DNA of 51,186 nucleotides from a virus. Below are positions 2,954 to 15,519 of the stretch, piece by piece. Within the stretch, counting starts at the first letter, position 1; each line of letters opens with the position of its first letter. Location: the UHGV virus genome UHGV-0191814, one strand, 5' to 3'. The notes under the pieces were generated by a model. The model worked only from the letters and a program-made list of their open reading frames with translations. It did no database searches and was not told the origin of the DNA. A program made the translations under genes and the position numbers.

Positions 2954-4501
2954 TTACCTCCACTCAACGGGGTATTTCCATTCTTTGAGTAGTTGTGATT
3001 TGAGTGCGTCGTCCGCTGCCTCGAAGTCTTGGTACATGTCGGGCGTCCAGACGCTGTACTCGCGCGTTACTTTCTCGCTTACCGGAGCTCCAATGATAGA
3101 CAATCTGTTCAGCGCTTGCGTAAACGCGTCAACGGTGTCGTCGTGCTGTCCCGCCGGGAACGCCGACGCCTCGTCAATCAACTCGTAGGCCCACGGCTCG
3201 TAGGGCAGATACACGTGTTTCGTTTCCTGTATGTACGATACCGCCGCCGCTCTGGACAGTTTGCCGCCTTCAGGGTTGACGGGTATGATATTGTCGAATT
3301 CTTGCGACAACATGTCGATAGCCGCCGACCCGTTCGCCTTATCTTCTATGTACACCGCGTCTAGTTCGGGGTGCGACGTGATATACTCTCTGAGCACTGT
3401 AATCATCTCAGTGAACGACAGGCGGCGTCTAGTGCCCCAAATACCGTAGTAGTCGTTCGCACGCTTACCCCAGTGTTGTATAGCGACGAAGTCGCTTGTC
3501 TCGCTTTTCTTGAACGCCGCGTCGACGGACAAGACGTTATATACTTGTTCCGGCAAGTCCTCGTAGAACTGCCAGTTTTCTTTTAAGAAGATGTTACCCG
3601 AGTTAAGCACGGGGTTGCCTTGGAACAACGCGTTCCACGCACGCTCGCCGTTCTCGGTTACGTACGTTGTTTTATAGTCTTTGAGCCACGCGGCGCCTTT
3701 ACCAATCTCAGGGCACAGGGGTGCGCCTACCGGTCTCCCCATCGGGTCGTTCTCTTCTGCCTCGCACGGCAGGTTCAGCACTTCCACGTTCGGGAATGAC
3801 CGCTTGATATGACCAAACAAGTCGTCCTCGTGCCACCGCGTCTGTATGACGATAATCTTACCGTGTGGCGCGATACGTGTCAGGATTGACGCGTAGAACT
3901 CATCTAAGATAGCAGCGCGCGTCGTCTCCGACATCGCCTCTTGCATGTTTTTCGTCGGGTCGTCGATTATGAACAAGTCCGCCGGGTTACCAGTAATACC
4001 TGACAAGATACCTCTACTGATGCAGCGCCCGCCCTCGACAGACTCGAACTCAGTATTCGTCCACGGCGCTTCGGCCGGGTGGAACTCGGGAAACAGTCTC
4101 GGCCCGTAGTCCTCGAGTTTCCTCAGGTTACGTCTGCCGAATCGTTTCGCGAAGTCCTCTGAGTAACCGGCAATAATTACCGACTTGTCGGGGTGATTCC
4201 CAAGGTACCACGACGGCAACGTCTCAGTCAAGCTACGCGACTTACCGTGCTGTGGCGGGGTCGATATAAGTAGTACGTCGAACGCCGCGCTTCCTTTCTT
4301 GTTCAGAAATTCTTGCACTTTGTTACACAGAAACCTGTGAAACGCCGTATCAATAAAACCCTGGTTCGAATACAAGACGTACTTATAATAGGACTTCCGC
4401 GCTTCACGTACGGCAAGCTCCTCTCTGATCTGCTCGACCGATGCACATTGATCGATGCCCAAGGTTCTAAGCGCGGCGGCCGTCGTACTATTGTTATTCA
4501 T
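2954..4501 (-). CDS. terL: terminase large subunit
   Basis: Walker A (STPPQHGKS), Walker B (LFIIDDP), the TRWHEDDL motif (IQTRWHEDDLFG), and C-terminal nuclease motifs (VLSVDAAFK, IEDKANG). Start overlaps the upstream gene (ATGA-type coupling at 4494/4501). Confidence 0.9.
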   Translation of the reverse strand: MNNNSTTAAALRTLGIDQCASVEQIREELAVREARKSYYKYVLYSNQGFIDTAFHRFLCNKVQEFLNKKGSAAFDVLLISTPPQHGKSRSLTETLPSWYLGNHPDKSVIIAGYSEDFAKRFGRRNLRKLEDYGPRLFPEFHPAEAPWTNTEFESVEGGRCISRGILSGITGNPADLFIIDDPTKNMQEAMSETTRAAILDEFYASILTRIAPHGKIIVIQTRWHEDDLFGHIKRSFPNVEVLNLPCEAEENDPMGRPVGAPLCPEIGKGAAWLKDYKTTYVTENGERAWNALFQGNPVLNSGNIFLKENWQFYEDLPEQVYNVLSVDAAFKKSETSDFVAIQHWGKRANDYYGIWGTRRRLSFTEMITVLREYITSHPELDAVYIEDKANGSAAIDMLSQEFDNIIPVNPEGGKLSRAAAVSYIQETKHVYLPYEPWAYELIDEASAFPAGQHDDTVDAFTQALNRLSIIGAPVSEKVTREYSVWTPDMYQDFEAADDALKSQLLKEWKYPVEWR

Positions 4502-5219
4502 TACTTACCTCTTCGGGCAGTGCTCCTTGCTCGGGGTTCAATGCTTGCAGCAACGTCAACAGTTGTGTGTCCGTCAGTGACGCCAAGCCCTGCGTTTTAT
4601 GTTCCACAGTGACGTCGGTCTGCGGCTTGTAACCAGCCGTATCTCGCAAGAATTCCGCCGCTCTCGTGTCGCTATCGTCTATCGCCTTCGCAAATTGCCC
4701 CAATATAACAAGCTCCGATAACGAACACACGTCTTCCTCTAACATCTGCGCGAGGCCCTTTGCTTTCGACTCGTCAGACAACAAGTTCAACGGTATCTGC
4801 CTATCGGACAATTCTCTGACAATCGTTCTGTAATGCCTCTGCGACGACCCCGATATGAAATCAGCCATCTTTCCTTGCAACGCCTTAACAACATTCGTTT
4901 GTCTCTGCTCTGCACTCGGAGCGACCGCTAAGGGAGCCTCTTCATGCACCGGGTAGGGTGGGGGAAACTCGTCGGAAGGGCAAGTGAACTCGTCGTCGGT
5001 GACGGCGTAAGTAGCTTTTGGTTGGGCATTCGGTGAAAATGTGGTAGTGCCCGAGGGGCAATGCCCCTCAGGCGATGGAGAAAGAGAAGACACCGTGGGA
5101 AACGATGCAAGTGAGTTAGGTTGTGAAGGACGAGACGTGAGGTCCGTCATATGGGGTACGGAGTCCATTGTATGAGGAATGGGACGCGTTGCACGTGGCT
5201 CGTTGTTCGATGCTTCCAT
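4494..5219 (-). CDS. terminase small subunit candidate with a Ser/Pro/Thr-rich low-complexity N-terminal ~110 aa
   Basis: Immediately upstream of and translationally coupled to TerL. C-terminal half is helical with an ...EFLRDTAGYKP... segment reminiscent of the TerS HTH region. The N-terminus is unusual low complexity, and an internal Met (MADFIS...) could be the true start. Confidence 0.4.
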   Translation of the reverse strand: MEASNNEPRATRPIPHTMDSVPHMTDLTSRPSQPNSLASFPTVSSLSPSPEGHCPSGTTTFSPNAQPKATYAVTDDEFTCPSDEFPPPYPVHEEAPLAVAPSAEQRQTNVVKALQGKMADFISGSSQRHYRTIVRELSDRQIPLNLLSDESKAKGLAQMLEEDVCSLSELVILGQFAKAIDDSDTRAAEFLRDTAGYKPQTDVTVEHKTQGLASLTDTQLLTLLQALNPEQGALPEEVSNE

Positions 5220-5220
5220 A

Positions 5221-5236
5221 TACTATATATAGCAAG
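5221..5236 (-). promoter_or_regulatory. palindromic TATA-rich motif (CTTGCTATATATAGTA) abutting the TerS start
   Basis: 10-bp perfect palindrome CTATATATAG at 5223-5232. Shares (A/T)GCTATATA with the 42804 motif on the minus strand. Confidence 0.4.
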
Positions 5237-5382
5237 TAATGGGCAATGCACGTCATCAAAAAGTCAAAAAATTGCAAAATATTTCAACAAAATAATTAAT
5301 AAAGGCATACTGCCAAAGGCCGGGTGTGGGTGGTTTTTATTTTATTTGAAAATCTCAACGCGAAAACCGATGTTGCAGGGGG

Positions 5383-5404
5383 AGGGGTGAATCCCCTTTT
5401 CTGC
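5383..5404 (+). terminator. orphan hairpin plus T-tract (AGGGG-tgaat-CCCCT TTT) in the divergent intergenic region
   Basis: 5-bp GC stem, 5-nt loop, followed by TTTcTgcccTTT. No plus-strand gene upstream. Confidence 0.3.
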
Positions 5405-5648
5405 CCTTTGTGGCCCATAGAGCCGCGAGGTTTCACTAGGAATGGCGAAAGCCCTTTGTTGATTCCACTGTCAGGGCCCCTATATAATTTGTCACTCTGT
5501 TTGAATTTACCAGGTTTCTATTTATATTTATAAAGGCATTTATATTTATATTCATATCCATATTTATTTTTGTATGCTGCAGGCGCAAAGCGCTAGTCGA
5601 CGTGATATGTCGTATGTATAATGCGTTTGCGTATACGCGGTTGCGGCG

Positions 5649-5666
5649 AAAATTGTATTGAAAAAT
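5649..5666 (+). promoter_or_regulatory. conserved early motif AAAATTGTATTGAAAAAT (copy 1 of 4)
   Basis: The same 17-18-nt motif recurs at 6449, 7974 and 14860, all on the plus strand. Three of the four sit upstream of paralogous genes. Confidence 0.5.
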
Positions 5667-5717
5667 ATAAAATGTCGGAAACGACAGAAATAAAATATTC
5701 TTTTGGAGGTATCAACC

Positions 5718-6170
5718 ATGAAAACTATGACAATCCAAGTCAACACCACTACTCGTAAAGCAGTCGTTGAAGTCGACGGGGGCGCGCCCGTTGTATGTTC
5801 CCTTAAGAAAGAGGGTAATGAAACCTACTCTGTAGTCCTGAAAGATAAAATCGAATGGCCTACTAAGTACTATAACATTGGCGCGTTAGGCGAAGACCGA
5901 GTTATTACAACCAATGATGTTGATTGCAAAGCTCGCAAAACGACTCGCAAAGAGCTGACAGACAACAATCCGCACAAGATTCGTGTTGCGTCTATCTCAA
6001 GACGTCTTATGGAAGACTCAGAAGTTCTGAGAACAATCGAAGGCGTGACTGAAGACGAAGTATACTTCATAGTAAACTTAGCTGCACGACTCGAACAAAC
6101 CGCTGCACAAGCTCGCATAAAGGACCAGATTGAAAAACTGAAAGCTGAGCTTGAAAAACTGGGGGGCTGA
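5718..6170 (+). CDS. paralog family member 1: small protein with a conserved N-domain and a coiled-coil C-terminus
   Basis: ATG 5718 with GGAGG RBS at 5705-5709 (the ORF track used TTG at 5703). N-domain ...RKAVVEVDGGAPVVCSLKKEGNETYSVVLKDKIEWPTKYYNIG is conserved in the 6502 and 15094 genes. C-terminus IEKLKAELEKL is heptad-like. Confidence 0.75.
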   Translation: MKTMTIQVNTTTRKAVVEVDGGAPVVCSLKKEGNETYSVVLKDKIEWPTKYYNIGALGEDRVITTNDVDCKARKTTRKELTDNNPHKIRVASISRRLMEDSEVLRTIEGVTEDEVYFIVNLAARLEQTAAQARIKDQIEKLKAELEKLGG

Positions 6171-6187
6171 TGCCTCCCTTTTTTTAT
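6161..6187 (+). terminator. rho-independent terminator (GGGGGGC-tgat-GCCTCCC plus T7)
   Basis: 7-bp stem including one GU pair. The stop codon of the 5718 gene lies in the loop. T-run at 6179-6185. Confidence 0.6.
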
Positions 6188-6196
6188 GCCTCACGG

Positions 6197-6426
6197 CGCA
6201 GCACTAAACTCGCGGCACTACGCTCGCAGCACTAAGTACGGCGGTCTTCGAACAGAGGGCCGCCGTATTTTTTATTTTTTATTTTGCCCGAAGGGTGAAG
6301 CACTGGTCGCGCAGCACTAAGCCCGCAGCACTAAGCCCGCAGTACTACGCTCGTTATTCCCGAAGCGCACGGCACTGGTCGCGGGCCCATACCCAACGCT
6401 CGCAGCACTAAGCTCGCAGCACTTTG
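6197..6426 (+). repeat. array of ~8 direct repeats of CGCAGCACTA(A/C)G, plus two copies of CCCGAAG.G..CACTGGTCGCG
   Basis: Units at 6198, 6211, 6224, 6310, 6324, 6338, 6401 and 6415. 25-bp repeat at 6287-6311 and 6359-6383. Non-coding. Confidence 0.7.
6238..6285 (+). terminator. strong rho-independent terminator (ACGGCGG...CCGCCGT then TATTTTTTATTTTTTATTTT)
   Basis: Perfect 7-bp stem 6238-6244 / 6260-6266 with a long T-tract. Embedded inside the repeat array. Confidence 0.65.
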
Positions 6427-6448
6427 CTCGTCAAATCACGTCTCAACG

Positions 6449-6465
6449 AAAATTGTATCAAAAAT
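6449..6465 (+). promoter_or_regulatory. conserved early motif AAAATTGTATCAAAAAT (copy 2)
   Basis: See 5649. Confidence 0.5.
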
Positions 6466-6501
6466 CAGATAATACAAAAATAAAACTTGGAGGACAAGAA
6501 A

Positions 6502-7044
6502 ATGTCGAAACTTGTAATCGAAATCAATGGCGAAAGCCGCAAAGCTGTAGTAACAAAAGACGCAGAGGCGTCCGTAATCTGTTCTTTGAAAAAAGAAAGC
6601 AATGAATCTTATTCCGTTGTCTTAAAAGGCAAAGTGGAATGGCCTACGAAGTTCTATAATATTGGTCGAGACTTAACAGACCGTGTTATAGAGGTTGACG
6701 AAGAAGAGGCATTGCGCAGAAAATCAGGCAGTAGCGCGAATTCCGACGGTTCGAGTGCCGTGAAATCAACTCTCAGCGCAAAGAACGTTGCAAAACGCCT
6801 GATAGACGCGAAGTCTGTGCTCGTTGAAGAAGGCCTCGTGAACGATGAAGAGGCGGAAATGCTCGAAAAGCTGATTGACAAGCTTGTAGCGAATCAAGAA
6901 CAGTTGGCTCAAAAGGCTAAAATCGAGAAATTACGTGCGGAAATCGCTAAACTCGAGGCTGAGGCCGCTGTATTCGAGTCGCAACCCGCTGAACAAAGCG
7001 ACGAAGAGCCGGCAAAACGTGGCAAGAAAGCGAAGAACAAATGA
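6502..7044 (+). CDS. paralog family member 2 (conserved N-domain, acidic linker, coiled-coil C-terminus)
   Basis: ATG 6502 with GGAGG RBS. ...RKAVVTKDAEASVICSLKKESNESYSVVLKGKVEWPTKFYNIG... C-terminus IEKLRAEIAKLEAE. Confidence 0.75.
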   Translation: MSKLVIEINGESRKAVVTKDAEASVICSLKKESNESYSVVLKGKVEWPTKFYNIGRDLTDRVIEVDEEEALRRKSGSSANSDGSSAVKSTLSAKNVAKRLIDAKSVLVEEGLVNDEEAEMLEKLIDKLVANQEQLAQKAKIEKLRAEIAKLEAEAAVFESQPAEQSDEEPAKRGKKAKNK

Positions 7045-7111
7045 CAATCAAACGGCGATACGAAGGACGGTGCCCATTGTGGTGCCGTCTTTTCATGTTC
7101 TGCATTTAAGA

Positions 7112-7144
7112 GAATAACTCGACACGCTTATTCGCGCGTCTCGA
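7112..7144 (+). repeat. 33-bp direct repeat, copy A1 (GAATAACTCGACACGCTTATTCGCGCGTCTCGA), with an internal inverted repeat
   Basis: Identical copy at 7291-7323. Contains TCGACACGC...GCGTCTCGA inverted repeat (one mismatch). Confidence 0.7.
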
Positions 7145-7290
7145 TCGACGAACTTTGCCCCCTGTGCAGCGCGCGATGGGCAGTGTAAAATGTTTCGCGT
7201 GAAACAATCATCACTCAATGCACAACGGTCCACGCTCAATACTCATCGGTCAACGTTCGTTGTTTATTGTCCCTATCCCGCAGGTCGAGG

Positions 7291-7323
7291 GAATAACTCG
7301 ACACGCTTATTCGCGCGTCTCGA
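7291..7323 (+). repeat. 33-bp direct repeat, copy A2
   Basis: Perfect match to 7112-7144. Followed by AGCACTAAAATC, which resembles the CGCAGCACTAAG unit. Confidence 0.7.
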
Positions 7324-7397
7324 AGCACTAAAATCGGTGGTCGATGTTCCGCGTGAAACAATTTGAGACAAAGGGACACTCTTCAAAGAACAATGCA

Positions 7398-7434
7398 CGA
7401 TGGGCAATGCTCAGCGTTCGATGGGCAATGCTCA
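7398..7434 (+). repeat. tandem CGATGGGCAATGCTCA x2 (a related copy CGATGGGCAGTGTAAA at 7174); also TTCGCGTGAAACAAT at 7194 and 7347
   Basis: Read directly: 7398-7413 and 7419-7434 are identical. Confidence 0.65.
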
Positions 7435-7624
7435 ACAAAACATGAATCATTATTCATGTTTCAACAGGCAATGAAACGTGAACAATATTTCATATTTGAG
7501 GAACAACAAACAAGGCACTGGACTCAGTGGTCGGTGGGCAGAGTGCAATGCAAAGATATGTCAACAATGCGTGATTAACAAACTCAATCATTTTGATTAA
7601 GAAACTTAATCATACTATACGTCG

Positions 7625-7740
7625 CATTTTTTAATATTCTTTTATTTTTCTTTTATAGTAATAATAATATAGAAAGAAAGAGAAAGTAAAATTAAAGAAG
7701 AAAAAAATAAAAGAAGTAGGAATATATAAAAACAGGAGAA
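7625..7740 (+). repeat. AT-rich polypyrimidine (7625-7660) / polypurine (7670-7740) tract forming a long imperfect inverted repeat; candidate DNA unwinding element
   Basis: TTCTTTTATTTTTCTTTT (7636-7653) is nearly the reverse complement of AAGAAGAAAAAAATAAAAGAAG (~7696-7717). The plus strand is almost purely A/G over ~70 nt. Confidence 0.5.
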
Positions 7741-7973
7741 TTTTGAACACTTTATAGTACTATTTTGTCCAAAATGCACTTTTTCATTGAACATTGTTAA
7801 ATGTTTAACAAACTCCACTCACTGTGCTTTGTTAATCATTTAACAATCTTCAGACTTATTCGTGTTTTGCGCTGCCGCTTGTATCAACATTTCCTTGCAA
7901 ATAACACCTCGCAATCGCTGCAAAGCACCAAAACCAAAGCGTTCTTCTCACAAGCATACAATACTATCAATCT

Positions 7974-7991
7974 AAAATTGTATTAAAAAAT
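7974..7991 (+). promoter_or_regulatory. conserved early motif AAAATTGTATTAAAAAAT (copy 3)
   Basis: See 5649. The downstream ORF 8013-8324 is doubtful, so this copy may drive a non-coding transcript or the 8376 operon. Confidence 0.45.
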
Positions 7992-8375
7992 ATACATTGT
8001 AACAAATGAACAGTGTGCAATGCGACCGTCTTAAACGCCTGGTTTCAGCGTAATCTCCGCGGTCAAACACTGTTTTGTTTGCTACGACCGCTGAGCGTTG
8101 TGCATCACCCTATCCCCCTCAGGCTCGGCGGTTACAATATAATCTGCGAGCAATATGCCAACACACCGTTACCACAATCGTTTGATATTTTTCCATTTTC
8201 TCCCGACGATTCAGTGCGTTGTGCTTTGCGACGACTGGCTTTGAACGTCTTTTGCAGTCAACGTACCCTGAGCCACGAGCATTGCCCGCAGAGCATCGCC
8301 CTAACGTACGGTTTTTGTCATTAGTTTTCCCGTGCGTTAGGGTTTATTTGACAATTACTTTGGAGGTAAATATAT

Positions 8376-8879
8376 ATGCACGACATACGACCTGAACGTG
8401 TTATTGCGCTCGAGCGTGAAAATACTGAGTTACGTGAATGTATTGATAAGTTGTTCAAGCAGATAACTGAGCTCAGTGCTAAGTACGAAGCGCCTGCAGA
8501 CGCCGTCGCAACGCAGCAACGACCACTGTACGACGTACCCAGTCACGGAATGACTAATGAAATGTGTTTGAAGTTGATGACGACGAAGCAGCTGGCGGCT
8601 TTCTACGCAAAGTATTTCTTTTGTCAGCCGATTCGTAATATCGGCGAGTCGCGCGATAGCGCGTCCCATTACGACTCACAAACGGGCGAGTTCGAGATGG
8701 TCCATGATTGTCCGTTGAAGGACTTGTGCATCGAGCTCGGCCAAAACGCGCCAGAAGGCACTGTATACGAGTGCGAAGATGTCGTCGAGCACTGGTTGAA
8801 GACGCAGCAATTCAAGACGTTTAACGCCTATCGTGACGAAATAAATAAACAAATGGAGGATAAAGAAGATGACAATTGA
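8376..8879 (+). CDS. hypothetical early protein (167 aa)
   Basis: ATG with GGAGG RBS (ttggaggtaaatatatATG). First gene after the non-coding hub. Confidence 0.6.
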   Translation: MHDIRPERVIALERENTELRECIDKLFKQITELSAKYEAPADAVATQQRPLYDVPSHGMTNEMCLKLMTTKQLAAFYAKYFFCQPIRNIGESRDSASHYDSQTGEFEMVHDCPLKDLCIELGQNAPEGTVYECEDVVEHWLKTQQFKTFNAYRDEINKQMEDKEDDN

Positions 8880-9396
8880 TTTAGTCGATTCAATCGACGA
8901 GAAGCTGAACCTATTCAGCGCTAACTACGGTACGGACATTATTGCCGTATTTCCGGACAGAAAGGAAATGTATGTCCGAGACATGGGGCAATTCCTGAAG
9001 TCGTTCTTTGCCGACTGGGACGATGAAGTGTTTGTTGACACGGACCACAATATGCGTACCGTTGCAAAATCTGTGTTGACTGGCCGCGAGATGTATCAAG
9101 TATTCTTGCAAGACGATTACACTGGTTATACGATTATCGGCGAGTACGAGATTGCGAGCGACGCGAAAGAAGCGATCGAGAATTGCCATACGCGTCAGTA
9201 CTCTGTAACAGTGGCAATGAACTTCGAACTCAGCCTGACGGTTACCGCATCAAGTCTCTCAGAGGCTGAGGACGCTGCGTATCAATATTGCGCCGACACG
9301 ATGACACTCGAACAGCGCTACTCATCAAACGAAGATATCGAGGACTGGGACGTTACCGACACGAACATCGAGGTCACGGACGCCGAGCTTGTATAG
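8869..9396 (+). CDS. hypothetical protein (175 aa), acidic
   Basis: Start overlaps the upstream stop. Long ORF in the operon frame pattern. Confidence 0.55.
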   Translation: MTIDLVDSIDEKLNLFSANYGTDIIAVFPDRKEMYVRDMGQFLKSFFADWDDEVFVDTDHNMRTVAKSVLTGREMYQVFLQDDYTGYTIIGEYEIASDAKEAIENCHTRQYSVTVAMNFELSLTVTASSLSEAEDAAYQYCADTMTLEQRYSSNEDIEDWDVTDTNIEVTDAELV

Positions 9397-9409
9397 GAGG
9401 TACAGTTAT

Positions 9410-9949
9410 ATGCCGAGAAAAACCAAAACCCGCTACGTCGTATCAGACATGTACGACACGATTTTCAGCGACGCCGTGATGGACGACTTGAAAGAATTCT
9501 ATCCCGATGCGTCAGAAGCATTGCTCGACGAGCTTGCAACAGACCTTTATTTCGACAACCGTCGATTGCTTATGCAGACGTTTGCAGATACAATCTTCCC
9601 GACCGACGTCATCAACATCGCTGAGCTCGGACTATGGGACGGCAAGCACTCCGCGTTCCGCATTTACGAGAACCCGACACTCGACGAACTGTTCCAAATC
9701 GACCGCGATATTGATGAAGCGGAATGGTACGTTGACGAGTACAACGACCTTCGTTGCAACGCGCATCATCACGACGGTTGCAACCACTACTTGTATCGTC
9801 AGATACGCGCCGAGATAGGCGACAAAGCCCGCCAGAACTTCTACCGCAAGATTCAGTCTCATACTTTGACGCGCAAGGACCTCAATCACTATACCATTGC
9901 TCTCGGGCCGATCGTGACGGCTGCCGAGCAGAGACATTACGGCGGATAA
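9410..9949 (+). CDS. hypothetical protein (179 aa) with a His/Cys cluster NAHHHDGCNHY
   Basis: ATG 9410 with GGAGG RBS at 9396-9400 (the ORF track started at 9389). Confidence 0.55.
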   Translation: MPRKTKTRYVVSDMYDTIFSDAVMDDLKEFYPDASEALLDELATDLYFDNRRLLMQTFADTIFPTDVINIAELGLWDGKHSAFRIYENPTLDELFQIDRDIDEAEWYVDEYNDLRCNAHHHDGCNHYLYRQIRAEIGDKARQNFYRKIQSHTLTRKDLNHYTIALGPIVTAAEQRHYGG

Positions 9950-9955
9950 ACCACT

Positions 9956-10297
9956 ATGAAGAAAGAACCAGAACTTAAACGACAACCTCAGAACTACGAC
10001 AGAAAAGAAGTCTTTGAAGCAGCGCGCATCACGCGAGATGACTTCATACGCTATACTTATGCCTATCGGCTACAAGCTGACCCGACCCATGCAACGGCCG
10101 CCGACATCAGCAGCTACTTGCGAGAACTCTGCCCTGAGTTCGCCGTATCGACAAAATACGTCAATATGGTAATACGATCGAGACCGCTCGTCACACCGCT
10201 CGACGTGCGAGAACTCGCCGAACGCTGTGAACTGTACTCTGTACGACTTAGGGCAGCCGCGTCAGCTCTGAAAGCTGCATTACATCTGGAGGACTAA
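9956..10297 (+). CDS. hypothetical protein (113 aa)
   Basis: ORF immediately after the previous stop, in operon context. Confidence 0.5.
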   Translation: MKKEPELKRQPQNYDRKEVFEAARITRDDFIRYTYAYRLQADPTHATAADISSYLRELCPEFAVSTKYVNMVIRSRPLVTPLDVRELAERCELYSVRLRAAASALKAALHLED

Positions 10298-10299
10298 GA

Positions 10300-11097
10300 A
10301 TGCAAACATGGAAAGTTACGCTTGATTCGCCTACCGACTTAGACCGCGACCAGGACATACAGACACTGCACGTTATGTGCGCGAACCGAACCGTGCACTG
10401 GGACTTCGACATTGCGAACGACGACATTGTCTTTCTGACCGGCGACGCAACGTCACTCGAAACAATACTACCTGCGCTCAGCGGTAAAGCTACGCGCGAG
10501 GTACTCGACACGGAAGTCCTGACGTTCTCACGCTCTGAACGAGATAAACTGCTCTGCGAGCAATACCTCTATTCATCGACAGTCCCGACTGTTCAGGACG
10601 TTGCTGATACGTTCGGTATTACGACAGCGCTCGCATATGAAATATTGCGCAAAAACCACATACCGCTTCGTACAAAGCGCGACAAACGACGTGAAGATAT
10701 CGAAGCAGCTCTACCTCGCGTACAAAACGGCACAATCAAGGACATATTGCTCGATTACCTCGACGGGCTTAACTACAAGGAACTTGCGGAAAAATATCAC
10801 AAATCGCAGTCGTATATCGTAAAGATAACCGCGCTCGACAATATGTCTATCATACCTGAGGACATCTATACCTCGCTCGCCGGACTCTGGGAATCGTCGT
10901 TCTACGACCTCAACTACTGCGCCGACGTGCTCAACATCGAGGTATCTGACGTGAGAAAATACCTCAGAGAACTCGGGTATAACATCACTGTTGCATATAT
11001 TGCCGACGCGCTGCGCAATGAGTGCAACCTGATGCGCAAGACCATCACCGAGCAGACCACCGAGATATTGAACCTGAAGGCAGAACTGAGGAAATGA
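10300..11097 (+). CDS. HTH-containing putative transcription regulator (sigma region-4-like segments)
   Basis: Segments TVQDVADTFGITTALAYEILRK and LLDYLDGLNYKELAEKYHKSQSYIVKI resemble sigma region 4 / LuxR-type HTH. Confidence 0.4.
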   Translation: MQTWKVTLDSPTDLDRDQDIQTLHVMCANRTVHWDFDIANDDIVFLTGDATSLETILPALSGKATREVLDTEVLTFSRSERDKLLCEQYLYSSTVPTVQDVADTFGITTALAYEILRKNHIPLRTKRDKRREDIEAALPRVQNGTIKDILLDYLDGLNYKELAEKYHKSQSYIVKITALDNMSIIPEDIYTSLAGLWESSFYDLNYCADVLNIEVSDVRKYLRELGYNITVAYIADALRNECNLMRKTITEQTTEILNLKAELRK

Positions 11098-11759
11098 GCG
11101 CCATACTCGAAGCCATACGGAATAGCGGGCCATGGGCGCCGATCGTCTTCACGATATTCCAGTTCTTGCAGGTAACGTTCATACCGATAAGTTCGACGCC
11201 TGTGACGATACTCGGAGCTCTGCTGTTCCCGTGGTGGGAGTGCTTGATATTGACTCTAATCGGTCAGCTCGCCGGCTCTCTGTTCGCGTTCTACTTAGCG
11301 AGACGCTTCGGGCTCAGGTTCGTATTGAAACTCATCAAACGAGAACAGTACGACAAGATTATCGCTCGCCTGCACGGACGAGAGGTATCGACACTTGTGT
11401 TTATGTTCTTGTTCCCCGTGTTTCCAGATGACTTGCTATGCTTAGTCGCGGGGCTCACACCGATGAAGACCAAGACGTTTGTCATCGTGCAAATCATAAG
11501 CCGTACGCTCACTACACTCTGGACTATATTCGGTACAGCGGCGATCGTGTACCTCGGGTCTCTTCAATGGGCGTTCTACATCTGGCTGCTTATCGGAGCA
11601 TTACTCGGTGCAATAATAACGATAGGCTGCGTGTACCAAGAAAAGATTTCAACGGCACTGCTCAATGCGTGGCGTCAACACAAGGAAAATAAAATATACT
11701 TAACGTATCGCCCAACGAGCGACGAACGACGGGCGAGGCGTAACAAACGGAGGAAATAA
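11094..11759 (+). CDS. DedA/TVP38-like integral membrane protein (221 aa)
   Basis: ATG 11094 overlapping the upstream TGA (ATGA). Multi-TM. Motif FLFPVFPDDLLCLVAGLT resembles the DedA family signature. Basic C-terminal tail. Confidence 0.5.
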   Translation: MSAILEAIRNSGPWAPIVFTIFQFLQVTFIPISSTPVTILGALLFPWWECLILTLIGQLAGSLFAFYLARRFGLRFVLKLIKREQYDKIIARLHGREVSTLVFMFLFPVFPDDLLCLVAGLTPMKTKTFVIVQIISRTLTTLWTIFGTAAIVYLGSLQWAFYIWLLIGALLGAIITIGCVYQEKISTALLNAWRQHKENKIYLTYRPTSDERRARRNKRRK

Positions 11760-11798
11760 TGTTAAGACCTTACTAATTGACTCAGAAACAATCAGAAA

Positions 11799-11957
11799 TG
11801 TTCCGCAAATACTGTAACAGCAGCGCAACGTCACTGCACGACGTGTATAAAACGTGGTCTGCTGAAAAAGAAGAAGCGTTCAACGCGTGTCTGTCCGAGT
11901 TGACTATATCTATAAAACCGAATGCGGTGAGTATGCCAAAGTTAATATTACATTAGT
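11799..11957 (+). CDS. possible small ORF (52 aa), Cys-containing
   Basis: Open frame in a 240-bp gap. Weak RBS. Below the 60-aa track cutoff. Confidence 0.2.
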
Positions 11958-11996
11958 TGAAAAACATATTGACAAAATGATAGAGGAGCAGCTGAA

Positions 11997-12197
11997 ATGC
12001 CCAAAATAAGATGCGCTGAGTTCGAAGTACCGAACGGCGAACATTGTGACAAGCCCACCAACGTTTGTCCGATGTGCCGAAGCGACGGAGTGATAGACTT
12101 TTGTCTTCTGTTCGGTTATGCCCTCGAAGAAGACCCAGACAATGGCTACTTACTCAAGAAACTCAAAATATGTAAACACTCGGAGGTAAAGGAATGA
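11997..12197 (+). CDS. small Cys-rich protein (66 aa), zinc-finger-like
   Basis: C..C..CPMC..C pattern. Stop overlaps the next start. Confidence 0.5.
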   Translation: MPKIRCAEFEVPNGEHCDKPTNVCPMCRSDGVIDFCLLFGYALEEDPDNGYLLKKLKICKHSEVKE

Positions 12198-12379
12198 AGT
12201 ACACACACGAAAGCGAAGAGTTAAACGCTCTCTTAGGCAAGAAAGTAAAAGTTACATTGTTTGACAACAAAACGATAACCGGTGTATTAACCCGCGCGGA
12301 GTGGAGGTCCAACCGTTACGAAGTCACAAATTATTCTTTTTACAAAACCCACGTTAAAAAGATAGAGGTAGAAGAATGA
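12194..12379 (+). CDS. small hypothetical protein (61 aa)
   Basis: Translationally coupled (ATGA overlap) to its neighbours. Confidence 0.45.
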   Translation: MKYTHESEELNALLGKKVKVTLFDNKTITGVLTRAEWRSNRYEVTNYSFYKTHVKKIEVEE

Positions 12380-12633
12380 GAAAACAAGGAGATAATGTTG
12401 TGCTGTCAAGTAAAGAATACGAAATGTTGAGTAATGAATATAGAAACCTCGAAATAAAGTATAGTGACCTTTATGACAAGTACAACTTATGTAAAGACGC
12501 GAACAAAACGCTTAAACAAAACGTAATTGCGGCGCGTAAGGAATGCTTAGAGGCGCAAAACGCCGAAGATATCAAAATACTACTTGTAGAAGACGGCAGC
12601 ATCGACGTTGACGATTTTGGCGATGTTCATTGA
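12376..12633 (+). CDS. small hypothetical protein (85 aa), coiled-coil-like
   Basis: Coupled start. Heptad-like charged sequence. Confidence 0.45.
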   Translation: MRKQGDNVVLSSKEYEMLSNEYRNLEIKYSDLYDKYNLCKDANKTLKQNVIAARKECLEAQNAEDIKILLVEDGSIDVDDFGDVH

Positions 12634-12717
12634 CGAACATGACCTTAAAATCAAAATCGTTTTATACAGACAAGGTTCTGTGCCGCCTCGTTTTCTCAAA
12701 CAATCGGAGGACTAACT

Positions 12718-13197
12718 ATGCCAACCAGAAAAGAACAAATCGAATTTATCAGAGACGTATTGCGCCAAGCACGCGTACGTGAATGCATCGGCAAAGTGTG
12801 CGAAGAGTGCAAATTCTACGACTCACCGAACTGCCTTGAAACGTGCTATGCCACGGAGCTTGTGGATATGGGTATCGTTCAACTTCCGGCAGAGAAACAA
12901 AACGCTCCGGAAGCCAAGACGATTGACTTGTCCAAGAATCAAGAGTTTGCGTCCGTTACCCCAGCGGTATTTGCGCATATATCTGACGCACACTTTTCGA
13001 ACATCATTACAACTTTGATAGAATCTGTCGAGTCGTATGTCAATCTGCGCTTGGACACGTACGTAAATACACTCAAAAAACATTCACAAACGTTCCTTAT
13101 AGGCGACGGCGACGGACAATATCACAACGAGCAATATGTTCCGGTCACTACAATTGACCACATATTCACGTTGCTTTCAAACCCTGAAGCGGAATAG
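12718..13197 (+). CDS. hypothetical protein (159 aa) with a Cys cluster CIGKVCEECKFYDSPNCLETC
   Basis: GGAGG RBS (aatcggaggactaactATG). Confidence 0.55.
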   Translation: MPTRKEQIEFIRDVLRQARVRECIGKVCEECKFYDSPNCLETCYATELVDMGIVQLPAEKQNAPEAKTIDLSKNQEFASVTPAVFAHISDAHFSNIITTLIESVESYVNLRLDTYVNTLKKHSQTFLIGDGDGQYHNEQYVPVTTIDHIFTLLSNPEAE

Positions 13198-13207
13198 GAG
13201 GTACCGT

Positions 13208-13468
13208 ATGATTATCGACTTAATACTCGACAGAAAAGACCACGAAGAAGCAACGGGTAACGACATGTACAATCCGTACGCTTTCTATCGGGAAGTAATG
13301 TCGTATGAAAGCATTTTCGAGATGGACCGCGATATCTCGTCGGCCCTCGATTATGGTACTGAGGACGACGTGCGCAAAGCATTGTGCAAGTACATCGACG
13401 ACCAACAATACAACCCCGAAATCAAGAACTACGTGAACTCGAAAAAGTGGCTTGAACCTATAAAGTGA
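13208..13468 (+). CDS. hypothetical protein (87 aa)
   Basis: ATG 13208 with GGAGG RBS. The ORF track started at 13136 inside the previous gene. Confidence 0.5.
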   Translation: MIIDLILDRKDHEEATGNDMYNPYAFYREVMSYESIFEMDRDISSALDYGTEDDVRKALCKYIDDQQYNPEIKNYVNSKKWLEPIK

Positions 13469-13478
13469 AGAGGACACT

Positions 13479-13703
13479 ATGAAGTATTTTTACACTTTTG
13501 TAACAGAAACACTCACCCGCCCCGTAGTAGTAAAAGCGAAAGACCAAGAAGAAGCCGAACAGAAAGTGATCGACGCGTACTACAACGGAAAGTTTGTGCT
13601 CGACGCGGCTGACTTTGTGGACGTCAACTTCGAGACCAGAGAGGGCGACCTTGCTAAGCGTCTTTCGCCGGCAGACCAACTCAATCTGACGTACGTCGAA
13701 TAA
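13479..13703 (+). CDS. hypothetical protein (74 aa)
   Basis: ORF with GAGGA RBS. Confidence 0.5.
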   Translation: MKYFYTFVTETLTRPVVVKAKDQEEAEQKVIDAYYNGKFVLDAADFVDVNFETREGDLAKRLSPADQLNLTYVE

Positions 13704-13712
13704 GGAGGTAAC

Positions 13713-13862
13713 ATGTATACCGACGAAGCAAGACCGAATGAAGCAAAATTACAAAACATTCTCAGTAACGGATGTAACTGGGAACAACTGGCACAAGACT
13801 TGTTATCGTGGTTAAGCGACGATGAATTAAGCGACTTTGCTAGAGCCTACGGGTGGTTTTAG
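13713..13862 (+). CDS. small hypothetical protein (49 aa), missed by the 60-aa cutoff
   Basis: ATG 13713 with AGGAGG RBS at 13703-13708. Ends TAG 13860-13862. Confidence 0.45.
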   Translation: MYTDEARPNEAKLQNILSNGCNWEQLAQDLLSWLSDDELSDFARAYGWF

Positions 13863-13871
13863 GAGGCAAGT

Positions 13872-14027
13872 ATGACCATTTGTTATAGATGTTATCTTGA
13901 ACTGTTATCGCGCGGCGAACAGGTATTCACAGCAAAAGATTACGTACACGACGAAGACGGCGTACAATGTGATATGTGCGGAGAAACCATCGAAGAAGGG
14001 GACGAGATATACAATGTCTACGAATAA
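13872..14027 (+). CDS. small zinc-ribbon protein (51 aa; CxxC...CxxC)
   Basis: ATG 13872 with AGGAGG RBS at 13861-13866. MTICYRCY...CDMCGE. Stop overlaps the sigma gene start. Confidence 0.45.
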   Translation: MTICYRCYLELLSRGEQVFTAKDYVHDEDGVQCDMCGETIEEGDEIYNVYE

Positions 14028-14574
14028 TCAACCCTCAGTCGATATCGAGAAGCTCTGCACTGAGAACATTCCGCTTGTGTACTACGTGTACTGGCACAAG
14101 TTCGATAAGTACCACGACATCAAGCTACGGTTCTACGACGAACTGATATCTGCGGGTTTCTTAGGACTTTTGCAAGCGGCGAGACGATATAACCCGTCCA
14201 CTGGGTATAAATTCTCAACGTTTGCAGCAGCGTCCATCGAGCGTCGTATGTATACCGAAGCGCGAAGAATCTTCAGGTGGTATTACCGTTCACCGACCGT
14301 TTGCCTTGAAGACAGACGTAATATCCCAGACAAGAACTTCGATTCGATCGCCGCTGCGGACCAGCGTATGATTGTCAACTACGTTCTTGCCAAAGCAAAA
14401 GAACAACTGTACCCTAACCACTGGAATATTTTATGCGATTACTTGTGCGGCGTCACAGCCCCAGAACTGGCTAAGAAGTACCAGTGCAAGTCGATCGGAC
14501 AAACACTCACAAACATTTTTGCAAAGATTCGCAAAATAAGCGAACAAATTTATAAAAAGGAGACAAAAGAATGA
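14014..14574 (+). CDS. phage-encoded sigma-70-family sigma factor (186 aa)
   Basis: Region 2 signature ELISAGFLGLLQAARRYNPSTGYKFSTFAAASIERRMY. Region 4 HTH GVTAPELAKKYQCKSIGQTLTNIFAKIRK. ATG at 14014 (track ORF 13897 is in the same frame). Confidence 0.75.
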   Translation: MSTNNQPSVDIEKLCTENIPLVYYVYWHKFDKYHDIKLRFYDELISAGFLGLLQAARRYNPSTGYKFSTFAAASIERRMYTEARRIFRWYYRSPTVCLEDRRNIPDKNFDSIAAADQRMIVNYVLAKAKEQLYPNHWNILCDYLCGVTAPELAKKYQCKSIGQTLTNIFAKIRKISEQIYKKETKE

Positions 14575-14861: not shown

Positions 14862-14877
14862 AATTGTATTAAAAAAC
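14860..14877 (+). promoter_or_regulatory. conserved early motif AAAATTGTATTAAAAAAC (copy 4)
   Basis: See 5649. Lies 22 nt upstream of ATG 14901. Confidence 0.5.
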
Positions 14878-15518: not shown

Positions 15519-15519
15519 T

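Follow-up and report, generated by a model that had tools for sequence, protein, structure and literature searches.

A largely non-coding region of a 51-kb phage genome contains a plausible replication origin and a structured leader RNA among putative control modules

RESULTS

Positions 6171 to 8375 hold one gene and four separate modules

The window, by which we mean the whole 51,186-nucleotide stretch of DNA that was analyzed (UHGV virus genome UHGV-0191814), is a complete, circularly permuted 51-kb genome of an uncultivated gut phage that closes as a circle; a search of GTDB genomes for its host gave no match. Its largest non-coding gap lies at 7045-8375, while an apparent gap at 1-1024 was found to be coding after the genome was circularized. 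Gene 6502 (6502-7044) is the only real gene within 6171-8375, and a sequence-only reading had described the remainder as an essentially non-coding hub. We found that the remainder is indeed non-coding, with no 3-periodicity, with indels that are not multiples of three, and with no ORF led by an SD. The idea of a single hub did not hold, as the region consists of four independent modules that differ greatly in conservation:

6161-6500, module 1: a pair of terminators, an array of eight 14-nt tandem repeats, and a promoter-like motif
7062-7570, module 2: a terminator, then a fast-evolving, repeat-rich spacer that is partly window-specific
7572-7846, module 3: a conserved island with an AT-rich block flanked by two 19-bp and two 18-bp palindromes
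7962-8350, + strand, module 4: a promoter-like motif and a structured leader RNA (P1 to P7)

Conservation among relatives is 93 to 99% over most of 5590-6950, 0 to 70% over nearly all of 6950-7630, and 87 to 98% over 7630-7870, and the leader is a mosaic.

We counted variable sites by codon position across 9 to 10 relatives. The counts are 48/11/5 for gene 6502 (p = 9e-12) and 55/32/21 for gene 8376 (p = 2e-4), where gaps occur solely in multiples of 3. There is no 3-periodicity over 7614-7997, with counts of 35/36/34 (p = 0.97) and 24 one-base gaps, or over the leader, with counts of 26/28/31 (p = 0.80) and many gaps that are not multiples of three. A search of 6171-6501 and 7045-8375 for SD-led ORFs of at least 30 aa found none, and every neighboring gene has a GGAGG-type SD.

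The small ORFs starting at 7363, 7801, and 8013, which had already been doubted from the sequence, are rejected as genes, since they lack an SD and are absent, frame-shifted, or broken in relatives. The DNA of ORF 7363-7578 is missing from all relatives, indels break the reading frame of ORF 8013-8324 in relatives, and the window copy of ORF 7801-7986 is frame-shifted compared to the relatives, two of which have TTG in place of its ATG. We therefore regard it as highly improbable that small protein-coding genes are hidden here, for example a 58-aa - strand ORF at 7642-7818 or the 57- to 61-aa + strand ORF at 7801-7986. Both are open in 8 to 9 relatives, but neither has an SD, though genes of this genome carry GGAGG; the former stays open because stop codons cannot be encoded by a polypyrimidine tract, the latter has the frame shift and start codon change just described, and 3-periodicity is absent over this small-ORF region (p = 0.97).

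Terminators and repeats surround gene 6502

Modules 1 and 2, together with the gene between them, contain the following features:

6161-6185, + strand, intrinsic terminator t1, which ends the monocistronic gene 5718-6170 (stem at 6161-6178, then seven T)
6197-6428, 14-nt array in three groups (6197-6238, 6310-6351, and 6401-6428)
6234-6280, + strand, intrinsic terminator t2 (16-bp stem, then a T-rich tail)
6449-6469, + strand, promoter-like motif AAAATTGTATCAAAAATCAGA, 33 nt upstream of the gene 6502 start and invariant in relatives
6502-7044, + strand, gene 6502, a paralogue of gene 5718-6170, with the SD GGAGG
7062-7093, + strand, intrinsic terminator t3 after gene 6502, conserved in all relatives
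7094-7570, hypervariable spacer in which CAATGC / GGGCAATG repeats recur at intervals of 14 and 21 nt

A terminator scan found t1 (RNA hairpin of -14.6 kcal/mol, z = -3.5) and t2 (-26.9 kcal/mol, z = -7.9); the t3 hairpin has an energy of -18.7 kcal/mol (z = -4.6). These three and hairpin P7 of the leader each have the stable GC-rich hairpin, followed by a U-tract, that marks an intrinsic terminator. In relatives, the t1 stem shows a G.U to A-U change and the t2 stem shows G-C to G.U changes that are valid on the + strand only; the G.U-type changes in the terminator stems are compatible only with that strand. The t3 stem holds two G.U pairs and therefore forms on the + strand only. Placed in tandem, t1 and t2 would close the one-gene unit 5718-6170.

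The first of two repeat clusters that had been pointed out in this region was confirmed as eight 14-nt units, CGCAGCACTAAGCY, at 6197-6428, to which we add two partial GCACTGGTCG units at 6300 and 6372. All five genome copies of GCACTA[AC]G are within the array region (0.2 expected), units are gained or lost whole among relatives, and the mean pairwise identity of 6186-6448, which contains the array, is 0.89. We presume that this is a protein-binding array, and the eight repeats, which would be untranscribed after t1 and t2, probably bind a protein. The promoter-like motif at 6449 would then start gene 6502. This gene encodes an orphan protein that has a coiled coil and a beta-rich N-terminal domain, and homologues were found only in this phage clade; its AF2 model is of low confidence, and a fold comparison gave no match.

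The spacer has a mean pairwise identity of 0.28 and is longer in the window because of duplications specific to it (36-mers at 7109 and 7288 and 19-mers at 7190 and 7344). Relatives lack most of 7093-7467, and small conserved islands are present at 7323-7343 and 7514-7540. The second repeat cluster is likewise real: its 36-nt repeats (7109-7144 and 7288-7323) are 97% identical and are accompanied by GGGCAATGCTC-type repeats at 7391-7431. The 36-mer was not found in IMG/VR. Within the genome, five of the seven copies of CAATGC[AT]C are inside 6171-8375, four in the spacer and one in the leader.

A conserved AT-rich island lies between paired palindromes

Module 3 consists of three features:

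7572-7612, OL1 (TGATTAACAAACTCAATCA, 7572-7590) and OL2 (TGATTAAGAAACTTAATCA, 7594-7612), two 19-bp palindromes 22 bp apart
7620-7745, AT-rich block with a pyrimidine tract (7625-7660) and then a purine tract (7670-7740), a candidate DNA-unwinding element
7794-7846, OR1 (TTGTTAAATGTTTAACAA, 7794-7811) and OR2 (TTGTTAATCATTTAACAA, 7829-7846), two 18-bp palindromes 35 bp apart

The AT-rich block, of about 125 bp and 14 to 17% GC, is as exceptional as it had seemed by eye. The 100-nt interval starting at 7631 has the genome minimum of GC content (14%; the next lowest is 22%), and the 70-nt interval starting at 7671 has the genome maximum of purine content (87%). The block is present in all human- and pig-gut relatives, with a mean pairwise identity of 0.925 compared to 0.86 to 0.88 at third codon positions of the two flanking genes, and the island at 7572-7846 is the only conserved AT-rich non-coding DNA. 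The two tracts had also been proposed to form a long inverted repeat capable of cruciform extrusion. The inverted repeat exists, with 18-nt arms that are 89% complementary, but the cruciform idea is not supported, as this complementarity is no more than base composition gives and folding is not above chance: the single-stranded DNA of 7615-7745 has a folding energy of -10.5 kcal/mol (z = -1.27), a stability matched by 23 of 200 shuffles.

A palindrome noted near 7800, GTTAAATGTTTAAC, was located at 7796-7809, and the inverted repeat there is better described as the two tandem 18-bp palindromes OR1 and OR2. This inverted repeat is 92% complementary, and its DNA fold has a z score of -5.9, with 0 of 200 shuffles as good. 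OR1-OR2 is the most conserved non-coding stretch (identity of 0.977) and is missing from one relative (L005). Changes in two relatives (L049 and L054) break the pairing and do not compensate for each other, so it is the sequence, and not a hairpin, that is conserved. We presume that OR1 and OR2 are recognized by a DNA-binding protein that is dimeric or multimeric; when alleles of nearby DNA-binding proteins were compared with the site variants, none tracked them. Four of the five genome copies of the motif T[GT][AT]TTAA[CG]AAA are in this region (0.2 expected). OL1 and OL2 are replaced by unrelated sequence in three relatives (L009, L010, and L054).

A promoter-like motif precedes a structured leader RNA

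Module 4 and the gene start that follows it contain these features, all on the + strand:

7962-7998, promoter-like motif with its core, AAAATTGTATTAAAAAATATA, at 7974-7994; nearly invariant in all relatives (identity of 0.949)
7999-8350, structured non-coding leader RNA of about 350 nt, helices P1 to P7, then UUUAUUU
7999-8016/8067-8085, helix P1
8024-8029/8059-8064, helix P2
8035-8041/8046-8051, helix P2a
8086-8100/8120-8133, helix P3
8143-8154/8281-8292, helix P4
8176-8184/8203-8211, helix P5
8228-8243/8268-8280, helix P6
8298-8311/8330-8343, P7, a terminator-like hairpin, then a U-tract
8362-8378, SD GGAGG and ATG of gene 8376, the first gene of a long + strand operon

The motif at 7974, previously read as the fourth copy of an early motif, is real: copies occur at 5649, 6449, 7974, and 14860, all on the + strand, with 0.00 matches to the 7974 motif expected by chance. 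The core AAATTGTAT has these four + strand copies, each of which precedes genes or the leader, and one - strand copy at 39387. From its position, the 7974 copy would act as the promoter of the leader. The AAAATTGTAT motif is not a canonical sigma-70 promoter, taking as the sigma-70/sigma-A criterion -35 and -10 hexamers separated by 16 to 18 nt, an A at -11, and a T at -7. A sigma-70 consensus scan of the + strand listed none of the four copies; at the 14860 copy, the motif begins 41 nt from the ATG, which rules out TTGTAT as a -35 element, and TATTAA was rejected as a canonical -10 element, as it lacks the final T. Given this mismatch with sigma-70 geometry, even the transcription of the leader is something that we infer. 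A search for a promoter-like site between P7 and gene 8376 found none.

The proposal of a non-coding RNA locus is supported for 7995-8350, where we found a conserved multi-helix + strand fold with compensatory changes in a sample of 18 distinct, closely related sequences from one clade. The leader as it stands in the window folds at -108.5 kcal/mol (z = -2.3), and divergent relatives folded independently give the same architecture. In the consensus fold of 82 pairs, 97.1% of cells are paired, compared to 30 to 45% when the partners are slid, and its energy is -89.9 on the + strand versus -71.4 on the - strand. Double changes occur in 13 alignment cells, a number reached by 0 of 500 shuffles, and are confined to 5 pairs in the tool-counted alignment; "further pair types" did not exceed the shuffles. 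The helices contain 88 G.U cells versus 7 A.C cells. P5 has six sequence versions, all of which pair; P3, P4, and P7 also change compatibly, and indels are either gains and losses of whole hairpins or lie in loops. The P7 hairpin (-23.4 kcal/mol, z = -6.5) has an unusually large loop of 18 nt, and its stem is retained even where the loop is replaced in relatives, in most of which a second small hairpin, and not a U-tract, follows. A comparison of the whole window with Rfam 15, which had been suggested for this region, gave 0 matches at gathering thresholds. In E-value mode (E up to 10), the best matches scored 12 to 21 bits versus gathering scores of 39 to 117, and none lay in 7995-8350. The leader RNA is new and corresponds to no Rfam family.

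The operon that starts with gene 8376 carries all replication genes and ends with genes for a helicase, a primase-helicase, and PolB (19956-25000), and no strong internal + strand terminator was found before 25005-25035. An alternative-pairing (antiterminator) model for the 3' end of the leader was not consistently conserved among relatives.

The island has features of a replication origin

With a genome-extreme AT block between palindromic sites, the island's architecture fits an origin of replication, and we consider such a role plausible. The best initiator candidate would be the product of 21250-23220, a PriRep-like SF3 primase-helicase that matches SaPI5 PriRep (PDB 7OLA), a known self-loading initiator, over residues 262-530 (E = 5e-21) and has the Pfam domains Prim-Pol, D5_N, and DUF5906; a PDB sequence search with its C-terminal 146 residues gave no match. 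This protein is 97 to 98% identical in all relatives, a level that matches the conserved island and not the hypervariable repeats. The DnaA box TTWTNCACA occurs 0 times in 6171-8375 and 3 times in the whole genome. A whole-genome GC-skew analysis, proposed as a test of origin function, was uninformative, as the skew follows gene orientation only. The other very AT-rich stretch of this clade, which relatives carry between terS and gene 5718, does not occur in the window and is therefore dispensable.

DISCUSSION

We put at about an even chance the reading that 6171-8375 is a cis-acting control region of four separate modules, including an origin-like core and a leader RNA. The island at 7572-7846 would most likely be the loading and melting site for the phage replication initiator. 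Downstream of it, the promoter-like motif would make a folded leader of about 350 nt that places a hairpin and U-tract just before the first ribosome-binding site of the operon, and this leader would most likely set, as an attenuator, the transcription or translation entering the replication operon. Transcription leading away from the AT block may also help to open the block via negative supercoiling. Counting against an origin, three relatives have other sequence in place of the left palindromes, and L005 lacks the right ones.

A less probable, though still serious, possibility is that the island controls transcription, with its four palindromes acting as repressor or activator operators or as a nucleoid-protein site. 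These would time the 7974 promoter or insulate it from upstream units, and the leader would be a long structured 5' UTR, a part of this reading to which we give the same limited credence. The palindromes are dyad-symmetric, 18 to 19 bp long, and paired at 22 and 35 bp, as for dimeric helix-turn-helix proteins, and their spacing by whole helical turns resembles that of repressor operators too. The island is 150 to 420 bp upstream of the promoter-like motif, several DNA-binding or sigma-like proteins are encoded (10300-11097, 14014-14574, and 17024-17476), and a GGGCAATGC-type motif of this region recurs at 5239, in the sequence upstream of terS. However, the sites are far upstream of the promoter core and not over it, regulator alleles do not covary with the site variants, and operators have no need for a 125-bp genome-extreme block of 14 to 17% GC. 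In addition, no conserved extreme AT block is present in this genome at 5220-5717, the only other large non-coding candidate to host an origin.

In T7-like genomes, short repeat arrays lie beside the ends, and tandem short repeats suit binding by a ring-shaped TerS. One could propose that packaging or a terminus is located here, with TerS bound to the 14-nt array at a pac site or at the boundary of a terminal repeat, given that terS (4494-5219) is about 1 kb from the array and that the contigs of many relatives end in the 7620-7745 block or in AT-rich DNA beside terS. We consider this unlikely. The contigs stop precisely at low-complexity A/T runs, and full-length contigs show no overlap between their two ends, which looks like assembly failure. 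The breaks also fall at two different places. Both the window and contig 167044 are continuous across the terS-proximal region, the window is continuous across the 7620-7745 block as well, and the genome forms a closed circle. Equally hard to credit, and perhaps slightly more so, is that the region is for the most part mosaic DNA without function, a hotspot of recombination that gathers morons and duplications and whose apparent structure is a by-product. The hypervariability of 7094-7570 (identity of 0.28), where much of the window copy is a private duplication, the gain and loss of whole hairpins and one whole gene in the leader region, and the presence of chimeric paralogues are all in keeping with it. 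However, the conservation of 7630-7870, the promoter motif, and the leader helices equals or exceeds that of synonymous sites, and base pairing in the leader is kept despite sequence change.

Comparison with known systems shows partial likenesses for each module. We compared the 14-nt array with iteron- and centromere-like arrays (lambda ori iterons, P4 ori/crr, plasmid R1 parC, and pSM19035 omega sites). Like these, it has eight head-to-tail short repeats that are clustered, untranscribed, and beside a promoter, and its copy number shifts by whole units. It differs in its 14-nt period, which does not correspond to an integral number of helical turns, in having neither a partition ATPase nor an obvious cognate binding protein encoded nearby, and in its distance of 1.2 kb from the AT-rich block.

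For the island, the closest parallels are origins of self-loading initiators. In SaPI origins, iterons flank an AT-rich region on both sides and are bound by the Rep winged-helix domain (PMC9371898). A SaPI-type initiator would use this C-terminal domain to melt the AT region as well. The phage primase-helicase has the same PrimPol, D5_N, and SF3 ATPase build as SaPI5 PriRep, and, in a partial likeness to SaPI origins, short repeated sites in both orientations flank a central AT-rich region (PMC9371898). In the island these TTAAC-containing sites lie on both sides of the AT block and in both orientations, but they are 18- to 19-bp palindromes, of which the left pair is lost in three relatives, whereas SaPI origins have 6 to 12 iterons of 5 to 6 nt, at least 2 per side, directly downstream of rep. 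The candidate sites here are about 13.4 kb upstream of the helicase gene, and a SaPI-type placement is not seen: PolB (23198-25000) overlaps the end of the primase-helicase gene, no intergenic DNA follows, and the gap from PolB to the convergent gene is only 38 nt. Origins of SF3 helicases in SV40 and BPV pair inverted sites with an AT-rich tract (PMC1779811). The SV40 large T antigen and papillomavirus E1 core origins, at which an SF3 helicase double hexamer assembles, have inverted initiator sites beside an AT-rich tract, as here (PMC1779811), but SV40 and papillomaviruses infect eukaryotes, and their origin-binding domains are unrelated. At their outer edges, OR1 and OR2 carry ATTGTT / AACAAT hexamers that are identical to the BPV E1 site, which we take as a coincidence in AT-rich DNA.

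The leader resembles attenuating leaders (riboswitch, T-box, trp-type, and HK022 put-type) in being a structured RNA directly after a promoter that ends in a hairpin and U-tract before the ribosome-binding site of the first gene. As differences, a conserved switch between terminator and antiterminator pairing could not be demonstrated, the leader exceeds most of these in size, at about 350 nt, and the operon has no strong internal terminators that would call for processive antitermination. A further counterpart is the origin of the lactococcal Ceduovirus c2, which replicates plasmids without phage proteins, lies between divergent early and late modules and the mapped promoters PE1 and PE2, is non-coding, without an ORF or ribosome-binding site, and is transcribed from the first early promoter into PE1-T RNA, whose sequence and/or structure is thought to matter (PMC7150918). 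There is no sequence similarity between the leader or region and the c2 origin, no second promoter was found after P7, and the divergence point here is at 5220-5717, with the leader 2.3 kb further into the + strand block, after two small genes. Like the c2 origin, 7995-8361 has no SD-led ORF or coding signal, directly follows a putative promoter motif (at 7974), and is at the start of the early region in a phage of Gram-positive-type hosts (PMC7150918).

Genome context and lineage

The window, at 51,186 bp, proved to be a complete phage genome in circularly permuted form. A minus-strand ORF at 48188-51166 (992 aa) runs across the window end into 1-1024 and, on circularization, becomes one ORF of ~1330 aa; positions 1-1024 are therefore coding rather than a gap, and the boundary-spanning ORF identifies the window as a permuted complete genome. 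One relative is colinear over the window-end junction. The genes fall into two blocks.

Gene blocks of the genome
25038 round to 5219, minus strand: genes including portal (1025-2917), TerL (2954-4501) and a 3306-aa ORF
5718 to 25000, plus strand: genes ending with a helicase, a PrimPol/D5-type primase-helicase (21250-23220) and a divergent PolB

The plus-strand block also encodes two sigma-like proteins, a dUTPase and ThyA, and its early operon carries a VTT/DedA-family membrane protein (11094-11759; Pfam VTT_dom, E=5.6e-20), an unusual cargo for a phage. A search for tRNA and tmRNA genes returned none. The 3306-aa ORF (25038-34958, minus strand) had no sequence match in Pfam, PHROG or PDB, an adjoining 1126-aa ORF had none in Pfam or PHROG, and the sole Pfam match of the ~1330-aa ORF was a short alanine-zipper near its listed start; all three are large virion-side proteins that lack annotation.

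The region at 6171-8375 had no DNA similarity to INPHARED phages or PLSDB plasmids, and the best protein matches of TerL and the primase, 25-40% identical, are to phages of Bacillus, Faecalibacterium, Listeria and Paenibacillus. The genes have strong GGAGG ribosome-binding sites, so a Bacillota-type host is likely, if unproven; GTDB genomes searched with the primase-helicase for a host or prophage gave no match. The lineage has no cultured relative, but its members are often found in metagenomes of human and pig gut, from which we obtained 18 distinct versions of the region, all of one clade. The first gene of the long plus-strand operon (gene 8376) has 138 homologous protein clusters, and one cluster of its neighbor contains 916 sequences. 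A profile search of PDB with gene 8376 gave no match, and a match to an "anti-termination protein Q-like" entry (E=0.0033) was dropped: it falls within a C-terminal extension that only the window has, and 10 relatives did not reproduce it.

In five relatives (L004, L006, L008, L009 and L010; positions 1-1450), terS and gene 5718 are separated by an additional 1.3-1.4 kb, comprising an Asn-rich ORF and >100 nt of pure A/T, which is absent from the window (5220-5717) and from contig 167044. Nearly all relatives' contigs end at this extra terS-proximal A/T DNA or within 7620-7745. Contig ends were considered as genome termini and rejected, since they cluster in A/T runs and are probable assembly breaks.

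Conservation divides the region into four modules

The sequence-only reading had described 6171-8375 as one non-coding hub, either a candidate origin of replication or a non-coding RNA locus. The region is real and non-coding, and most of what was observed there is far beyond chance; it is not one element, since a conservation profile over eight genomes separates it into four modules. Identity is 93-99% over most of 5590-6950, falls to 0-70% over nearly all of 6950-7630, returns to 87-98% in a conserved island at 7630-7870, and is a mosaic of 57-97% in the leader. For comparison, third-codon-position identity is 0.86-0.88 in genes 6502 (6502-7044) and 8376 and 0.93 in gene 5718, while the non-coding values are 0.977 for the right palindromes (OR1-OR2), 0.949 for the promoter-like motif, 0.925 for the AT block and 0.28 for the hypervariable spacer.

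Terminators and palindromes of the region
6161-6185, plus strand: intrinsic terminator t1, after the gene at 5718-6170; -14.6 kcal/mol, z=-3.5
6234-6280, plus strand: intrinsic terminator t2, after the gene at 5718-6170; -26.9 kcal/mol, z=-7.9
starting at 7062, plus strand: intrinsic terminator t3, closing gene 6502; -18.7 kcal/mol, z=-4.6
7572-7590 and 7594-7612: left pair of 19-bp palindromes (OL1, OL2), 22 bp apart
7794-7811 and 7829-7846: right pair of 18-bp palindromes (OR1, OR2), 35 bp apart

Every part belongs to a known kind of element (terminators, repeat array, palindrome-flanked unwinding element, structured leader). The parts have new sequences, and the RNA would constitute a new family. 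The earlier interpretation was thus half right: the region holds a good structured-RNA candidate and a reasonable but unproven origin candidate, and there is no case for a cruciform.

The region lacks protein-coding signal

At 1331 nt, 7045-8375 is the largest non-coding gap of the genome. Neither 6171-6501 nor 7045-8375 contains an ORF of at least 30 aa led by a Shine-Dalgarno (SD) sequence, and when variable sites were counted by codon position in alignments of 9-10 relatives, the conserved coding signal that would have refuted the sequence-only reading did not emerge. The flanking genes are 3-periodic (48/11/5, p=9e-12, for gene 6502; 55/32/21, p=2e-4, for gene 8376), with gaps only in multiples of three. 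The variable sites of 7614-7997 are flat (35/36/34, p=0.97), with 24 single-base gaps, as are those of the leader (26/28/31, p=0.80), where many indels are not multiples of three. Individual ORFs fared no better: that at 7363-7578 lies in DNA absent from every relative; that at 7801-7986 lacks an SD, is frame-shifted in the window relative to other relatives, and has its ATG changed to TTG in two of them; and that at 8013-8324 is broken up in relatives. On the minus strand, 7642-7818 forms an ORF solely because stop codons cannot occur in a polypyrimidine tract.

A 14-nt repeat array and a hypervariable spacer

Changes in t1 and t2 among relatives are G.U-compatible for the plus strand only. 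Around and past these terminators the DNA contains CGCAGCACTAAGCY, a 14-nt unit repeated eight times in groups of 3, 3 and 2, together with two partial copies, and all five genome copies of the core GCACTA[AC]G are found in this array. Between relatives the array is longer or shorter by precisely one 14-nt unit, in a cluster that varies, so it evolves by slippage or unequal exchange with its sequence kept. Because it lies mostly between a terminator and the next promoter-like motif, it probably acts as DNA, as a putative protein-binding array. We identified no cognate protein; the paralogues 5718 and 6502 could not be linked to the repeats, had no Pfam or PHROG matches, and have homologues in this clade only. 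A low-confidence AF2 model for the paralogues (pLDDT 67) found nothing in PDB with Foldseek at E <= 0.001. In one 724-nt ENA contig, protein P0010 is a paralogue chimera that joins the gene 6502 N-terminus to the gene 5718 C-terminus; it arose by recombination between the paralogues or is an assembly chimera.

The 480 nt past t3 are hypervariable. Repeats of the CAATGC / GGGCAATG type, at 14- and 21-nt spacing, occur in every relative, with differing number and arrangement, and the spacer of the window is enlarged by private duplications (36-mers at 7109 and 7288, 19-mers at 7190 and 7344). Much of the second repeat cluster reported from the sequence therefore consists of these duplications and is not conserved in the lineage. 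The 36-nt repeat was also considered as a mobile element and rejected, as IMG/VR contains no other copy.

Two further observations concern the spacer. The motif ATGGGCAATGC / GGGCAATGCTC occurs on the plus strand beside the terS start (5239-5249) and in the spacer (7400-7410 and 7421-7431), and inverted, in minus-strand sense, in the 3' arm of leader helix P4 (8277-8287) and the 5' arm of P3 (8089-8105); this recurrence could reflect a shared protein site or be the trace of an inverted duplication. The alleles of a 159-aa gene at 12718-13197 group as {L009, L010}, {L008, L038} and {L002, L004, L006}, which roughly matches the spacer types 5 kb away and may indicate linkage or functional coupling.

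A promoter-like motif precedes genes and the leader

The motif AAAATTGTAT(T/C)AAAAA occurs at 5649, 6449, 7974 and 14860, always on the plus strand and directly upstream of an SD-led gene or the leader, and is nearly invariant among relatives. From its position we infer a putative promoter. It does not fit sigma-70 geometry, and a scan for such promoters reported none of the four copies on the plus strand; TTGTAT cannot be a -35 element, because the copy at 14860 lies only 41 nt from its ATG. A virion RNA polymerase was considered as the reader of the motif and rejected, since the 3306-aa ORF lacks Pfam, PHROG and PDB matches and an N4-like promoter hairpin is not conserved across the copies.

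The leader is a good candidate for a conserved structured RNA

The ~365 nt past the 7974 motif are non-coding and fold into seven helices (P1 to P7). The fold of the window leader (-108.5 kcal/mol, z=-2.3) was reached by none of 100 shuffles, and divergent relatives, folded independently by minimum energy, gave the same architecture. In the consensus from a 12-sequence alignment, which has 82 pairs, 97.1% of cells are paired, compared to 30-45% when the partners are slid. Changes on both sides were found in five pairs (13 cells), a count that none of 500 shuffles reached; a measure of further pair types in the same alignment did not exceed shuffles. There are 88 G.U cells, pairs possible only if the plus strand is the RNA, and just 7 A.C cells, and the consensus energy is -89.9 kcal/mol for the plus strand versus -71.4 for the minus strand.

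Adding six further relatives sharpened this result. P5 has six sequence versions, all of which pair; the central A.C mismatch of P4 is G-C in three variants; and the arms of P7 occur as CCCUAACG/CGUUAGGG, CCCGACG/CGUCUGGG and CCUUCGACG/CGUCAAGG. Differences in leader size are whole hairpins, inserted in the P3 loop, after P5 or in P2, and P6 is lost in the pig-gut relative. The loops of P5 (UUUUCCAUUUUUCUCC) and P7 (UUUUUGUCAUUAGUUUUC) are near-invariant. In one relative the P7 loop is replaced and the 13-bp stem kept, which suggests that it is the stem that functions. P7 (-23.4 kcal/mol, z=-6.5) is followed by UUUAUUU in the window and, in most relatives, by a second small GC hairpin with an A/U tail and then the SD. 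The pig-gut relative that lacks P6 (L049, 3477-3999) has an extra SD-led 134-aa gene between P7 and its gene 8376 homologue, so the leader behaves as a module heading the operon. Separately, L008 has an extra hairpin (~3912-3990; see also L037) whose loop, GGAATATCTCTTTATTCT, is reverse-complementary to the P7 loop of L050 (2640-2680), AGAATAAAGAGATATTCC; this looks like loop inversion between inverted stems.

These compensatory and G.U-compatible changes support the suggestion of a non-coding RNA locus. An Rfam scan gave no credible family in gathering mode or in E-value mode up to 10.

An origin-like core at 7572-7846

The AT block at 7620-7745 is the compositional extreme of the genome: the 100-nt window from 7631 is 14% GC, compared to 22% for the runner-up, and the 70-nt window from 7671 is 87% purine. 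Every relative, one from pig gut among them, has this block with hardly any change. Pairing of its pyrimidine and purine tracts, proposed earlier as a cruciform or unwinding element, is no better than chance (z=-1.27); we therefore dropped the cruciform and kept the reading as easily melted DNA. The right palindromes score as a 25-nt inverted repeat (z=-5.9) because each site is itself palindromic. Changes in two relatives break this pairing without compensation, so it is the sequence that is conserved, as for protein sites, and not a hairpin. Four of the five genome copies of the motif T[GT][AT]TTAA[CG]AAA lie in this module. At their outer edges, OR1 and OR2 carry ATTGTT (7792-7797) and AACAAT (7842-7847), which equal the papillomavirus E1 binding hexamer, a match we take as coincidence in AT-rich DNA.

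An origin is our preferred reading of this island, as a reasonable, unproven candidate, and we put the chance that the module functions as one at a little under even. The primase-helicase is homologous to SaPI5 PriRep (7OLA, E=5e-21), a self-loading SF3 helicase that doubles as initiator and whose origin consists of short repeats flanking an AT-rich region (PMC9371898); in the SF3-helicase origins of SV40 and BPV, inverted sites are likewise found together with an AT tract (PMC1779811). Across all relatives the primase-helicase shows 97-98% identity, a constancy in keeping with the conserved island and one that speaks against helicase sites in the hypervariable repeats. There is no other conserved AT-rich non-coding DNA, and the very AT-rich DNA that relatives carry beside terS is absent from the window. 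Against an origin, the core, unlike that of SaPI, is not adjacent to the helicase gene; the region contains no DnaA boxes; three relatives have other sequence in place of the left palindromes, and one lacks the right pair; and paired palindromes are equally typical of operators. In a comparison of the site variants with initiator and regulator alleles, no early gene split cleanly along them, with gene 12718 giving a rough match only. GC and AT skew track gene orientation and give no origin signal.

Possible roles of the leader and comparison with known systems

The simplest reading is that the leader acts as an attenuator or translation-control leader. Its conserved loops contain two UCUCC anti-SD-like motifs (8054-8058 and 8199-8203). 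A terminator/antiterminator switch at the 3' end was rejected: in our reading of the folds, alternative pairing occurs in some relatives and is not conserved. Processive antitermination is not called for, because the operon lacks strong internal plus-strand terminators. Even without a role for the RNA in an origin, the region is a clean example of terminators, protein-binding arrays, an unwinding element and a leader RNA packed in 2 kb. A defined origin and early control RNA would open the way to host-free replication assays, lineage-tracking markers and a new structured RNA family for catalogues.

A leader role in origin activation is possible. Phage c2 offers a precedent, since its PE1-T transcript, which is non-coding, is implicated in the function of the origin (PMC7150918). 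In addition, by the established twin-domain model, negative supercoils would trail transcription as it moves off the AT block. A bolder reading, which we consider unlikely, is that the ~350-nt leader is a new class of phage RNA and part of a replication origin. Its transcription would start at the 7974 motif, next to the AT-rich core, and it would serve a PriRep-type (SF3 primase-helicase) replicon as origin-activating or primer RNA, tying initiation to the first early transcription, with the invariant pyrimidine-rich loops as contacts for the initiator or the purine-rich DNA strand. Such a mechanism would resemble that of c2 PE1-T or ColE1 RNA II, here in a widespread, uncultivated gut-phage lineage, and, if the RNA is part of origin firing, would join SaPI-type self-loading helicases and transcript-dependent origins, which have so far been studied separately.
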